Shown here one piece after another: positions 52,968 through 54,238 of a stretch of DNA of 64,000 nucleotides (position 1 is its first letter; the number at the start of each line of letters is the position of its first letter). The DNA lies in the IMG/VR virus record IMGVR_UViG_2703718774_000012; one strand, given 5' to 3'. Source of the DNA: a virus. Its lineage: Duplodnaviria > Heunggongvirae > Uroviricota > Caudoviricetes. The notes under the pieces are model-generated. The model had not been told where the DNA came from, did no database searches, and saw only the letters and a list, made by a program, of their open reading frames with translations. Both the position numbers and the translations under genes were made by a program.

Positions 52968-53125
52968 CCTCTCACTCCATTATTTAACGAATAAAAAAGC
53001 TGCGGTGCCGGGTTCCTCCCGGTGTCCTTTGGCTGGTTATCCACCGTGGACGTGGAAACAAGGAGAAATAATGGACAGATATAACCATTTCCCCGCGTGC
53101 GCTTAGCCGCATTCACCGCAACGGA

Positions 53126-53185
53126 AAGAGCATTCTTGGTGGACCTGTAGATTGGGATATGAACCCGTTACAGGAGAATGCTCTT
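53126..53185 (-). repeat. structured hairpin element, copy 1
   Basis: Stem AGAGCATTCT/AGAATGCTCT around core GTAGATTGGGATATGAACCCGTTAC. Confidence 0.6.
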
Positions 53186-53386
53186 ACCTGTTACGTGCTC
53201 CGTTTCGTGGAGCTAACGGCGGGTGATCAGACCGCACCAGACTGGACTTATTTCAGCGTTATGCTCATGCCAGAGAATCAAACTGTGATGGTCGGTGCTG
53301 AACTCCGACACAGGGTTGTAGCAAGCCCCGCAAAGCGCGCACTACTGTAGTTGCGGCACATCAGCCTGTGCATTCACCACAATGTT

Positions 53387-53462
53387 GAGAACACTGGTTG
53401 TCACGCGGCAACGCAACATTTATTCGTAGATTGGGATATGACCCCGTTACGCCAGTGTTCTC
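53387..53462 (-). repeat. structured hairpin element, copy 2 (compensatory stem)
   Basis: Stem GAGAACACTGG/CCAGTGTTCTC around core GTAGATTGGGATATGACCCCGTTAC. Confidence 0.6.
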
Positions 53463-53777
53463 AACGTTGTAGTTGTTATGCGTATTCTCTTACTAACCGC
53501 ACACCAATACATTTCCCATCACGTTCATTTGTCTCGAAACGTGAATACTTAAGTTCGCCGTTAATAATCGCTGTTACAACCCGTATCCCGTTAAACGCCC
53601 ACATATTTCGCTCCATTTACACACATTACCAGTCGCCGGTTACGGTTCCGGCCAGGCCTCTTCCTCAACGGGGTGTTCTCCATACGGACTACCGTTTATT
53701 GGTCGTTCCTGCGGTTTATGTTGTGAAGCCAGATGCTTATCTTCTGGTTGCTTCTAAGATCTGCACTTCATCACAAC

Positions 53778-53832
53778 GGTAAGAGCACTCGATGCATTTA
53801 AGCCAGGCCCCATAAGGGAGAATGCTCTTACC
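53778..53832 (-). repeat. hairpin element related to copy 1, directly 3' of tRNA-Thr
   Basis: Stem GGTAAGAGCA/TGCTCTTACC; right arm identical to copy 1. Confidence 0.5.
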
Positions 53833-53840
53833 TGTTATGT

Positions 53841-53916
53841 TGGTGCCGATTAACGGGATCGAACCGCTGACCATTCGCTTACAAAGCGACTGCTCTACCA
53901 ACTGAGCTAAATCGGC
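53841..53916 (-). tRNA. tRNA-Thr (anticodon UGU)
   Basis: GCCGATTTAGCTCAGTTGGTAGAGCAGTCGCTTTGTAAGCGAA...AATCGGCACCA; cloverleaf; CCA encoded. Confidence 0.8.
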
Positions 53917-53920
53917 AATG

Positions 53921-54007
53921 TGGTGGGGAGTGATGGAGTCGAACCACCCGAGTCGCAATGACAGTAGATTTACAGTCTACCCCGCTACCCCTACGGACTA
54001 ACTCCCC
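53921..54007 (-). tRNA. tRNA-Tyr-like (anticodon GUA, long variable arm), 87 nt
   Basis: Acceptor GGGGAGT/ACTCCCC, anticodon arm GTAGA-CTGTAAA-TCTAC, variable arm GTCATTGCGAC, T-loop TTCGACT, CCA encoded; D-arm atypical. Confidence 0.55.
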
Positions 54008-54012
54008 TAAAG

Positions 54013-54087
54013 TGGCGATGGTGGGTGGATTCGAACTACCGACCAGTTGGTTAACAGCCAACTGCTCTACCGCTGAGCTACACCATC
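54013..54087 (-). tRNA. tRNA-Asn (anticodon GUU)
   Basis: GATGGTGTAGCTCAGCGGTAGAGCAGTTGGCTGTTAACCAAC...CACCATCGCCA; cloverleaf; CCA encoded. Confidence 0.8.
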
Positions 54088-54215
54088 ACTTGCCGGGTAC
54101 GTCTCCGGCGAGGGCTTCCACCTCCGTATGCTTTTCGGCGCACCGCGCCCTGGCTGCAATTCGGTAACAGGGGATGCATAACCCTGGCTTCCAGCGTGAT
54201 TAGCGCCTTCAGCAT

Positions 54216-54238
54216 GACGGGATATACCCGTAAATTCG
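54216..54238 (-). repeat. degenerate fourth copy of the hairpin core
   Basis: GACGGGATATACCCGTAAATTCG resembles the core GGGATATGA(A/C)CCCGTTAC. Confidence 0.35.

Follow-up and report, generated by a model that had tools for sequence, protein, structure and literature searches.

Gene content of the P1-type ban operon leader

The DNA analysed here (the window) is a single stretch of 64,000 nucleotides. Its minus strand carries, in order, Pban, a dicF-like region, a probable hairpin that we term H0, the genes for tRNA-Asn, tRNA-Tyr and tRNA-Thr, a hairpin H3, a cassette with a 42-aa ORF, hairpins H2 and H1, an STnc100-like RNA body, membrane-protein and SPFH genes, tRNA-Ile, and ban. The hairpins follow tRNA genes in the leader of a P1-type ban (helicase) operon, and the P1 annotation has a dicF-like region in the same leader. 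The tRNA cluster, tRNA-Thr(UGU), tRNA-Tyr(GUA) and tRNA-Asn(GUU), occupies 53841-54087 on the minus strand and was detected by both ARAGORN and Rfam.

A preliminary description of this DNA had assigned the hairpins to the position of the P1 tci genes, an assignment that does not hold. Positions 52993-53473 are 97.5% identical to positions 2493-2973 of P1 (L001), its upl/plp region, and the hairpins are present in P1 too, beneath the upl and plp annotations. The tciABC genes of P1 lie between that region and tRNA-Ile, a position taken here by an SPFH lipoprotein gene (51923-52750) and a small membrane-protein gene (52731-52967). The same description found no convincing ORF among the hairpins, which turned out to be half true. 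An intact P1-type Upl ORF is present on the plus strand (53159-53350), followed by a Plp-like frame (53351-53782); both run antisense to the hairpins, and we argue below that they are probably spurious. On the minus strand, the 42-aa ORF (53476-53604) has a Shine-Dalgarno sequence, GGAG, and no Pfam match.

Long RNA hairpins around the tRNA genes

The 25-nt core reported previously, GTAGATTGGGATATGA(A/C)CCCGTTAC, is present in two exact copies, at 53147-53171 and 53426-53450, where dinucleotide-preserving shuffles predict zero matches. As had been claimed, the stems enclosing the two copies differ in sequence and remain complementary: we found inverted repeats with arms at 53123-53136 and 53175-53188 (I4) in H1, and at 53376-53397 and 53452-53473 in H2. 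The third hairpin, said to lie directly 3' of tRNA-Thr, does so (arms 53778-53790 and 53820-53832), with its base on the minus strand beginning 2 nt past the tRNA-Thr CCA. Folding each copy, as the preliminary description had proposed, showed that all three are far more stable than shuffled sequences on the minus strand (z = -4.9 for H1, -7.0 for H2 and -4.6 for H3), and that plus-strand folds are weaker.

To score these elements we used a covariance model, R1, made from 24 hairpins, all of them non-P1. H1 (53107-53197, minus strand) scores 58.4 bits (E 1e-13). Its outer stem is CGUAAC-A-GG-u-AAGAGCAUUCU / AGAAUGCUCUU-u-CC-GUUGCG, its inner stem is CCUGUA/UACAGG, and its apex, GGG-UUCAUAU-CCC, belongs to the first core copy, which reads GUAACGGGUUCAUAUCCCAAUCUAC in the RNA sense and is also found within different stems in Yersinia prophages and in PY54. 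H2 (53368-53473, minus strand; 44.3 bits, E 5e-10) is a solo hairpin with a three-way junction made of the outer stem, a core hairpin bearing the second copy on the minus strand (GUAACGGGGUCAUAUCCCAAUCUAC) and a side hairpin; GUGGUGAAUGC follows, with no STnc100 body. H3 (53761-53840, minus strand; 37.7 bits, E 3e-8; repeats D1, D3 and I10), also solo, has an outer stem of the H1 type and a different apex. Directly 5' of H1, a small GC hairpin, GCUCC-ACGAAAC-GGAGC, can be read from the sequence (53197-53213, minus strand); it has equivalents at 53635-53652 and 54092-54109, and in most family members such a small hairpin immediately precedes the long one.

A probable fourth member, H0, had been overlooked. 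Located upstream of the tRNA cluster (54293-54369, minus strand), it reads CACAACAGGUAAGGGCGCUGG...CAGCGUCCUUUCCUGUUGCG, includes repeat D4 and is followed by UUUUCUUUU, a U-rich run. H0 is the weak part of the series, with an R1 score of 16 bits (E 0.015) and about as much on the plus strand; at the corresponding place, the relative L287 carries a strong hairpin (51 bits with R1). The degenerate core copy previously reported at 54216-54238 did not survive scrutiny: its alignment, GGGATAT--ACCCGT, has a local score of 19, which is no better than chance: among 2,542 unrelated 55-nt windows from the same 64 kb, 8 equal or exceed it.

A hairpin family in temperate enterobacterial phages

R1 matches three to five hairpins in each P1-like locus, including those of P1 and RCS47, and also matches e14, SfV, ST64B, phiES15 and ZX4, with tandem copies in other phage contigs. 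The members have a modular architecture: a conserved base (5'-CAYAAC...GUUGYG-3'), a ~20-bp stem with a bulged A, a U.U mismatch and a conserved U.G wobble, an apex that is free to vary (14 to ~130 nt), and a 3' tail, GUGAAUGC. H1, H2 and H3 each have this base, stem and tail and match R1. That each of these three is a copy of a modular RNA hairpin carried by many temperate enterobacterial phages is well supported; H0 probably is one too.

The compensatory changes noted earlier between the two core-bearing stems extend to a third class in Yersinia prophages, whose inner stem is CUGAAUA/UAUUCAG, and to the large family. Across 67 distinct arm sequences, 93% of alignment cells are paired, double changes occur at 15 of 20 pairs, and covariation scores 0.518, whereas shuffles score 0.221 (0/500 reach the observed value) and slid partners ~0.1; for 99 distinct natural sequences aligned to the model the figures are 98% of cells and 9 of 14 pairs (0/500), and both alignments are biased by ascertainment, as 5' arms were picked for complementarity in one (A1) and the other (A5) was fitted to the model. 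A U.G appears at one stem pair in 59 of the 99 sequences, which favours an RNA read from the minus strand. On that strand, shared with the tRNA genes and ban, the R1 scores of H1, H2 and H3 exceed the plus-strand scores (17-21 bits), an asymmetry of ~25-40 bits. Covariation, frequent conserved U.G wobbles and this strand asymmetry bear out the earlier proposal of selection on structure, acting on the tRNA-coding strand.

In the Yersinia class a 21-nt apex and the three-way junction are kept despite diverged stems, and this apex, AACGGG(N)UCAUAUCCCAAUCU, shows no variation from P1-like plasmid-phages to Yersinia lambdoid or N15-like prophages, although the covarying stems around it are of three different kinds. 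A model in which the hairpin is purely a processing stem leaves this conservation unexplained. An exact-core scan of GTDB species genomes returned 10 matches, against a chance expectation of ~17 for 18 specified bases, and the match was real only in Yersinia alsatica and an Escherichia P1-like contig. Additional IMG/VR core matches (L012, L038, L039, L086, L095 and L099) lie inside ORFs encoding DWDM(N/T)P and were set aside as chance. The class-3 element is Yersinia-associated and present in PY54; a megablast search of E. coli genomes gave no match to it. A search for trans targets of the apex inside the 64-kb window yielded just scattered 9-10-mers, at chance level.

Among known elements, no Rfam family covers the hairpins in this region or in related loci, the only relevant match being a sub-threshold STnc100 hit beside H1. 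Most 3' arms read UGCUCUUU, which resembles rrn boxA; in relatives this segment covaries with the 5' arm, so pairing rather than a boxA sequence appears to be kept. We also rejected an analogy to integron attC sites or IS200/IS605 ends, judged from sequence alone: the base sequences misfit the attC core sites. No cognate recombinase gene was noted in making that comparison.

An STnc100-like RNA follows H1

Directly after H1, at 52987-53129 on the minus strand, lies an STnc100-like RNA body (GGUGAAUGCGGCUAAGCGCACGCGGGG ... CACCGGGAGGAACCCGGCACCGCAGC), which an nhmmer profile of 28 non-P1 units detects at 87 bits (E 1e-27). The Rfam STnc100 model (RF02076) aligns to 53001-53120 of the same strand at 38 bits, below its gathering score of 47; the alignment starts at GGUGAAU, 3' of the hairpin, which falls outside the match, and the 3' terminator module of the model is unmatched. 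Conserved body features in the H1 unit are the GGUGAAU start, a CACCGGGAGGCACCCGGCACC box and a closing helix. We considered whether H2 and H3 are trailed by decayed STnc100 bodies, and discarded the idea because the body profile matches only ~20 positions there (the first 21 at H2).

The closing helix would involve an exchange of partners. The segment CACCGCAGC, followed directly by U6 (52993-53007, minus strand), is an alternative downstream partner for the H1 3' strand, UUGCGGUG; in the minimum-free-energy fold of 52975-53225 (minus strand), GUUGCGGUG pairs with this segment and not with the 5' CGUAAC. In P1-like sequences, where the middle strand has changed from U to C, both of its partners have G.

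Comparison with relatives separates two kinds of unit. Those reading GGTGAATCCCCC are preceded by a TTGAC-17-TAAAT promoter, and those reading GGTGAATGCGGC have a hairpin in front instead, without a promoter; a scan of both strands of 52700-54850 for promoter-like sites found none. Rfam STnc100 scores are 35-41 bits for hairpin-type relatives and 74-90 bits for the promoter-type units tested. H1 is the 5' domain of an STnc100-like unit, which the preliminary description had overlooked, and the STnc100 family appears in two forms, one with its own promoter and one embedded in an operon behind a conserved hairpin that escapes Rfam. PasD and STnc100 are described as related, Hfq-bound prophage sRNAs, with RIL-seq cited in the same report for Hfq binding and trans-acting base-pairing by PasD (10.64898/2026.05.13.724894).

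Complete units of hairpin plus STnc100-like body stand at the head of repressor-controlled early operons, for example downstream of cI in SfV, ST64B, phiES15 and e14; P1-like phages have them in the leader of the ban operon, which C1 controls.

Cassettes lie at hairpin junctions

In the window, the tRNA cluster is inserted between the small hairpin at 54092-54109 and H3; in L287 the same small hairpin is fused straight to a long hairpin, with no tRNAs between. The 42-aa ORF belongs to a 161-nt cassette (53474-53634) that P1 lacks; here the cassette separates a small hairpin from H2. Both insertions thus sit at junctions of a small and a long hairpin. In the window, L278 and L019, a long hairpin adjoins the 3' end of a tRNA, and in L019 tRNA-Thr is fused directly to H1; in other loci a small hairpin or a terminator takes that place. 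The content of the array differs among loci, from two to five copies. L090 carries an H2/H1 hybrid joined at the shared core, and an H2/H1 hybrid with a broken outer stem persists in three contigs. The apex is deleted in L002, and the H1 apex is deleted in the closest relative, a 99%-identical phage.

Discussion

The suggestion in the preliminary description that these elements are RNA processing or regulatory modules is still the best reading, and the mechanism that we infer is as follows. The hairpins would act in RNA as processing or punctuation signals of a polycistronic leader. A double-strand-specific cut of the RNase III type in the long stem would split the leader into tRNA precursor, small cassette mRNAs and STnc100-like RNA; it would give the last of these a 5' end at GUGGUGAAU, such as free-standing STnc100 genes obtain from their own promoter, and, by releasing the 3' half of the stem, GUUGYGGUG, would let it pair anew with CACCRCAAC downstream, which would close the STnc100-like fold. 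In the DNA itself, the conserved bases of the hairpins may serve as homology linkers, through which cassettes (tRNAs, small ORFs and extra hairpins) are gained, lost and shuffled. We give this whole explanation, combining family identity, processing or punctuation hairpins and recombination linkers, slightly less than an even chance of being right.

The stems, at ~20-22 bp, have the length of an RNase III substrate, about two helical turns of double-stranded RNA. Genes of the P1 ban operon respond discordantly to hfq deletion (10.64898/2025.12.28.696737), which is compatible with segmental processing. Our literature search on RNase III or transcript ends in P1 or the e14 ymfH region found nothing usable. 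Since H2 and H3 lack an STnc100 body, setting the 5' end of an sRNA cannot be their function. Knock-downs of P1 upl and plp are non-essential (PMC10695390), and together with the broken-stem hybrid in three contigs and the H1 apex deletion in a 99%-identical phage this implies that any function is dispensable for growth.

A rather unlikely extension would make the hairpin a general holder for RNA cassettes, with the stem as processing signal and the variable apex as a payload released as a small structured RNA; the 21-nt apex would then itself be a functional RNA, for instance a protein- or ligand-binding loop or a kissing-loop antisense element.

The conserved 5' stem-loop of STnc100-like units might instead have left solo copies (H2, H3 and the Yersinia class) as neutral remnants of duplications and cassette swaps, with no present RNA function, which persist because they are neutral and promote modular exchange. 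The variable copy number, the precise deletion in L019, the shared-core hybrids (L090, and one with broken stem complementarity), the missing apex of L002, the body-less H2 and H3 and the non-essential region all fit such decay. Neutral remnants should lose pairing, however, and the solo copies stay fully complementary through many compensatory changes and G.U pairs; the Yersinia class holds its apex and three-way junction on diverged stems, and the strand asymmetry is also hard to square with decay; we regard remnants alone as improbable. We put a little less weight on a transcription-level switch, either an attenuator or a processive-antitermination leader, in which the hairpin base and the downstream CACCRCAAC would compete for GUUGYGGUG and polymerase would stop at the U-run at 52993-52998 or read on into the ban operon; more broadly, the unit might modify elongation as HK022 put RNA does at PL. 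Mutually exclusive partners are available in each of the three hairpins: in H1 (UUGCGGUG / CACCGCAG, then U6) and, through a possible downstream partner for their own 3' strand, in H2 (UUGUGGUG / CAUCACAG) and H3 (GUUGUGA / UCACAAC). Units come first in early operons under cI or C1 control, the place of nutL in lambda and of putL in HK022 (PMC9378689), and the same leader has an upstream terminator at 54560-54582 and the U-rich run after H0. Nevertheless, intrinsic termination by H1-H3, which had been suggested, finds no U-run after any of them: our terminator scan called sites only at 54560-54582 and 52724-52740, both on the minus strand, none at H1-H3, and left H0 uncalled. In most non-P1 relatives the closing helix has no U-run behind it, we detected no motif, Rfam or profile match in HK022 22000-30000 (the put coordinates being approximate), and the promoter-driven STnc100/PasD relatives are, by published accounts, sRNAs that bind Hfq and act in trans rather than in cis.

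Two further readings fared worse. The plus strand could encode Upl and Plp, as annotated in P1, with the hairpins incidental or acting in antisense or translational control of upl. Promoters of upl were predicted in the P1 annotation, an ATG lies in each core copy, and of 65 Upl copies from related loci 61 keep the ORF intact, or 7 of 11 distinct variants. Point changes within the intact variants are six nonsynonymous to one synonymous. The Upl ATG, located in the H1 apex, is missing from 4 of the 11; it is deleted in the 99%-identical phage and replaced in others. Plp "orthologues" share their first 41 aa and then diverge through indels and frameshifts, and P1 plp overlaps tRNA-Thr by 30 nt. 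Neither Upl nor Plp has a Pfam match, a promoter-like site or proper Shine-Dalgarno spacing, and the hairpin family is present in other phages without any such ORF, all of which makes proteins a very unlikely explanation. We consider it more improbable still that the hairpins are tRNA-like minihelices whose apex, as the preliminary description had it, mimics a T-arm and might recruit RNase P, CCA-adding enzyme, TrmA or TruB. The likeness consists of a 3-bp G/C apex stem with a 7-nt loop starting UUC and of hairpins adjoining tRNA genes; apexes in L155, L294, L331 and L333 carry canonical-looking T-arm hairpins (CUGGUUCGAUUCCAG and GUCCGUUCAAUUCGGAC), and the P1 C4 RNA is matured by RNase P. 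A T-loop has the consensus U54-U55-C56-R57-A58 on a 5-bp stem, and tRNAs end in 3' NCCA. Against this, the apex loops (UUCAUAU, GUCAUAU or AUCAUAU) have U at the A58 equivalent and U, G or A at position 54, their stem is 3 bp, and no CCA follows the hairpin. ARAGORN called only the four real tRNAs, the Rfam tRNA model gave no match at the hairpins at E<=10, and neither method found a tRNA in the tested relatives with T-arm-like apexes. The apex is also missing from H3, from most family members and from L002.

These elements have parallels in several known systems. With STnc100 (RF02076) and PasD, the H1 unit shares the GGUGAAU start, the CACCGGGAGG(C/A)ACCCGGCACC box and the long-range closing helix of its body, and an intergenic place in prophages or phages near Q, lysis or immunity genes, with TerB-type genes nearby in relatives. 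It differs in its sub-threshold score, in having a long hairpin in place of its own promoter, and in its ending, bare U6 and then an ORF, where the model has a 3' seed and terminator module (positions 148-206); no body at all follows H2 or H3. DicF-type sRNAs are reportedly cut from prophage early-operon transcripts, and they resemble the present RNA as small structured RNAs of repressor-controlled prophage operons with a proposed release by endonucleolytic processing; there is no sequence or Rfam similarity between them, and processing is only proposed here. RNase III processing hairpins punctuate phage polycistronic transcripts, as at the T7 early R sites and the lambda N-leader. Like those, our hairpins are imperfect stems of ~20 bp with internal mismatches or bulges, lie between functional units, and drift in sequence with pairing kept; they differ in having a conserved base and tail and long, variable, sometimes conserved apexes, have no sequence relationship to them, and their cleavage is putative. 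With HK022 put and lambda nut, the units in SfV, e14, ST64B and phiES15-type phages and in the P1 ban leader share a structured nascent RNA directly downstream of a repressor-controlled early promoter. Stable RNAs also arise from tRNA 3' external transcribed spacers, 3'ETS-leuZ being one example. H3 is similarly a stable structured RNA starting right after a tRNA 3' end in the same transcript, although it is unrelated to 3'ETS-leuZ in sequence and a sponge or Hfq-binding role would be hypothetical.

For P1 biology, this analysis means that upl and plp, which many P1-like records have inherited as annotations, most likely stand for a series of structured RNAs on the other strand; the "ymfH" CDS of e14 in E. 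coli K-12 likewise overlaps one such unit. It also links the P1 ban operon leader to the STnc100/PasD family of prophage sRNAs. If the cassette-holder idea is true, arrays of holders behind tRNA genes would be a previously unrecognised system to express and exchange non-coding payloads. The contrast between the two forms of STnc100 unit yields the testable idea of an sRNA gene whose RNA is either transcribed from a promoter of its own or released by processing, with switches from one to the other. Since tRNA and small-ORF cassettes are inserted where the hairpin bases lie, these bases also offer a way to learn how phage-plasmids shuffle their accessory cargo.

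A covarying RNA hairpin on the tRNA/ban strand

The window is a P1-like phage-plasmid: its interval 52900-54300 is 99% identical to Escherichia phage vB_EcoM-Ro157c2YLVW, and P1, RCS47, P7, D6, and SJ46 match the same interval piecewise. Along the minus strand, dmt (57801-54760) is followed by the C1-operator/Pban region (near 54740-54775), the P1 'dicF-like' region downstream of Pban (54544-54645), the genes for tRNA-Asn, tRNA-Tyr, and tRNA-Thr (54087-53841), the hairpin stretch described here, a gene for a 78-aa small membrane protein (52967-52731), an SPFH/Band-7 lipoprotein gene (52750-51923; Pfam E 1e-30), tRNA-Ile/Met(CAU), and ban. 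The dicF-like region has no Rfam DicF match at E<=10. It closes with a strong terminator-like hairpin and its U7 run (54560-54582), ~470 nt before the tRNAs, so that transcription of the tRNAs and ban requires either read-through here or another promoter. The Dmt ORF (54760-57801, minus) encodes 1013 aa with an intein-like insertion containing Hint_2 (residues 77-126) and LAGLIDADG_3 (298-361) domains, which interrupts the C5-methylase motif between GGTPC and CQAFS. P1 Dmt is without this insert, and the P1 record gives its CDS as 2265 nt.

Relative to P1, the window has an extra tRNA-Tyr and a 161-nt insertion (53474-53634). This cassette contains a 42-aa ORF (MWAFNGIRVV...VREYA; 53476-53604, minus) with a good Shine-Dalgarno sequence, annotated in NC_050153 as hypothetical H7U14_gp86 and without a match in a Pfam search. 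The preliminary description placed the hairpins at the position of the P1 tci genes. This is incorrect: with 97.5% identity, window 52993-53473 corresponds to the P1 DNA whose opposite strand is annotated with upl and plp. The tciABC position lies further on, and is occupied in the window by the SPFH and membrane-protein genes (51923-52967, minus), an exchange of cassettes immediately 3' of the STnc100-like unit discussed below.

Exactly two copies of the 25-nt core are found (53147-53171 and 53426-53450; 0 expected by chance), each enclosed by inverted repeats, and a third hairpin adjoins tRNA-Thr, all as first described. We term these hairpins H1, H2, and H3; their minus-strand fold z-scores are -4.9, -7.0, and -4.6, with weaker folding on the plus strand. 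A proposed degenerate core copy at 54216-54238 is at background level: its score is equalled or exceeded by eight unrelated windows elsewhere in the 64 kb.

We collected 155 distinct hairpin-bearing upstream sequences from fetched loci, ~40 types by eye, and built a covariance model from 24 non-P1 hairpins with 14 annotated pairs. The model scores H1 (53107-53197) at 58.4 bits on the minus strand and 17.3 on the plus, H2 (53368-53473) at 44.3 and 20.6, H3 (53761-53841) at 37.7 and 17.3, and a weak fourth candidate upstream of the tRNAs, H0 (54293-54369), at 16 and 15.3. Across 67 distinct arm pairs, 15 of 20 base pairs show double changes, and the covariation score is 0.518, versus 0.221 for shuffled pairs (0/500 reach 0.518) and ~0.1 with partners slid, in an alignment biased towards structure by the selection of arms. 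When 99 distinct natural sequences were aligned to the model, 98% of cells were paired and 9/14 pairs showed double changes (0/500), here with a bias from model fitting. Even so, the controls with slid partners and the variety of pair types make chance an unlikely source of this covariation. One stem pair is U.G in most family sequences. This wobble and the strand asymmetry jointly favour an RNA read from the tRNA/ban strand over a DNA cruciform or the antisense RNA. The hairpin itself is a solid observation, and the family is clear.

Among H1-H3 (53117-53136, 53380-53397, and 53770-53790) and their relatives, most 3' arms read UGCUCUUU, the first 8 nt of rrn boxA, in leaders at the position of nutL in lambda. 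This segment covaries with the 5' arm in relatives, so the resemblance may be coincidental.

The core recurs in Yersinia lambdoid prophages, the N15-like phage PY54, and a Yersinia alsatica genome, with Q or a methylase gene on one side and the lysis genes on the other; a terminator usually comes shortly before it, and in two loci a tRNA. In the Yersinia class the outer stem is different, but the 3' tail GUGGUGAAUGC and the 21-nt apex are retained, and the inner stem is CUGAAUA/UAUUCAG, compared with CCUGUA/UACAGG in H1 and CGUA/UACG in H2, giving double changes in 4/6 inner-stem pairs across the three lineages. Further exact matches of the core 17-mer fall within ORFs and are due to chance. 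The compensatory changes first noted in the stems hold both among lineages and family-wide. The proposed likeness of the apex to a tRNA T-arm is not borne out: the apex has a 3-bp G/C stem and a U/G/A-UCAUAU loop, in which the A58 equivalent is U and the first position varies, no CCA follows, and tRNA detectors report nothing at the hairpin apexes.

The three Plp 'orthologues' (from P1, RCS47, and the window) agree only over the 41 N-terminal residues, for which the H2 region codes, and differ by indels beyond these; in P1, 30 nt of plp also overlap tRNA-Thr. Most Upl copies are intact, and 6/7 point changes within intact variants are nonsynonymous. The Upl ATG lies within the H1 apex; the nearest relative has lost it by deletion, and in others it is replaced. 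A Pfam search matched neither ORF, no promoter-like site was found on either strand, and both genes are non-essential by CRISPRi in P1 (PMC10695390). We judge plp spurious and upl doubtful as a gene.

The hairpin occupies the place of a promoter in STnc100-like units

The one relevant Rfam match is to the prophage sRNA family STnc100 (53001-53120, minus; 38 bits versus a gathering score of 47), and its alignment starts exactly at GGUGAAU, directly 3' of H1. Distant BLAST matches to H1 plus this stretch lie in non-P1 temperate phages, among them Klebsiella ZX4, ST64B, SfV/SfIV, and Cronobacter phiES15. All four fetched loci (ZX4, ST64B, SfV, and phiES15) have a long hairpin with the base CACAAC...GUUGUG, then GUGAAUGCGGC..., then CACCGGGAGGCACCCGGCACCACAAC; in the latter three, the unit is found downstream of the repressor gene, heading the early-left genes. 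In phiES15, the 3' part of the unit (locus L138, 1583-1683) holds AUUGCUGUGUGUAGUCUUU, identical to the conserved segment of the host sRNA RprA (41 bits to Rfam RprA, under the gathering score of 70), and may represent seed mimicry by a phage RNA.

IMG/VR scans revealed two forms of the unit. Those with GGTGAATCCCCC have an upstream sigma-70 promoter (TTGAC-17-TAAAT), and those tested score 74-90 bits as bona fide STnc100. Units with GGTGAATGCGGC score 35-41 bits and have no promoter; the hairpin occupies the exact place that the promoter takes in free-standing STnc100 genes. A profile of 28 non-P1 hairpin-type bodies matches window 52987-53129 (minus) at 87 bits (E 1e-27), and matches only over its first ~20 positions 3' of H2 and H3; H1 therefore belongs to a complete unit, and H2 and H3 are solo hairpins. 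STnc100 and PasD, treated as related Hfq-bound prophage sRNAs in a 2026 preprint (10.64898/2026.05.13.724894), are the closest known family, with an RNA body common to the H1 unit. Unlike STnc100, the H1 unit falls under the Rfam threshold and lacks both a promoter and the 3' seed/terminator module.

The hairpin module is reused between cassettes

Read from its 5' side, the module opens with a small GC hairpin, a tRNA 3' end, or a terminator, and 1-2 nt later comes CAYAAC, in many cases with a bulged A after it. A stem of ~14 additional pairs, frequently interrupted by a U.U mismatch, leads to an apex of 14 to ~130 nt, and the returning strand is followed by GUUGYG-GUGAAUGC. The hairpin lies directly 3' of tRNA 3' ends or small hairpins, and is reused in tandem between cassettes. 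P1 has three copies, RCS47 four, and other P1-like contigs 3-5 with several apex types, and unrelated phage contigs can have tandem copies as well. In E. coli K-12, e14 has a single copy, beneath the 'ymfH' CDS. This CDS overlaps the hairpin and STnc100-like unit (L338, 2506-2744) at the head of the ymfH-xisE-intE operon, so ymfH may be a mis-annotated RNA element; this unit is carried by ~2,100 of 5,426 complete E. coli genomes.

A P1 relative (L287) has a minimal leader without tRNAs: dmt, hairpin, small hairpin, second hairpin, STnc100-like body, and ban. Window 54092-54109, which precedes tRNA-Asn, has almost the same sequence as the small hairpin of L287; the tRNA cluster and the 42-aa ORF cassette before H2 therefore sit at the small-hairpin/long-hairpin junction. 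In other relatives tRNA-Thr is fused directly to H1 (L019), the H2 5' arm is joined to the H1 3' arm via the core (L090), or the 13-nt H1 apex is missing (L002), showing that recombination acts on the repeated arms and the shared core and that individual features can be dispensed with. Four IMG/VR phage contigs (L155, L294, L331, and L333) have an apex with two canonical-looking T-arm hairpins, CUGGUUCGAUUCCAG and GUCCGUUCAAUUCGGAC. ARAGORN detects no tRNA in these apexes, which may carry tRNA-derived payloads; apexes can thus hold tRNA-like pieces, which does not rescue the T-arm claim for H1 and H2.

Neither Rfam, nor the P1, RCS47, and Ro157c2YLVW annotations, nor the literature searched records the module, in solo or tandem form, or its occurrence beneath upl/plp in the P1 ban leader.

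A proposed role in RNA processing

When the H1 unit is folded as a whole, the minimum free energy (MFE) structure joins GUUGCGGUG to CACCGCAGC downstream and not to the 5' CGUAAC, and a U6 run (52993-52998) directly follows CACCGCAGC. Among P1-like sequences, a U-to-C change in the middle strand, GUUGCGGUG, is matched by G in both partners. H2 and H3 have possible downstream partners, CAUCACAG and UCACAAC, and stay closed in MFE folds.

These alternative helices, and a position at PL/Pban, would fit a transcriptional switch or antitermination leader, which the hairpins could be, although no similarity to HK022 put was detected in HK022 22000-30000. Two other possibilities are that the hairpins are neutral remnants or linkers for recombination, and that the plus strand codes for protein. 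None of the three accounts for the strong conservation of the apex, which Yersinia phages also have; this conservation motivates a reading in which the stem is a processing signal and the variable apex is released as a small structured RNA.

As the most likely reading, we propose that the stem is a site of endonucleolytic processing, and an imperfect helix of ~20 bp makes RNase III the natural candidate enzyme. Cleavage would punctuate the long C1-controlled ban leader and release an STnc100-like RNA with the 5' end typical of the family, whose fold would be closed by the freed 3' half-stem. The discordant responses of ban-operon genes to hfq deletion (10.64898/2025.12.28.696737) are compatible with such segmental processing of the leader, without proving it.
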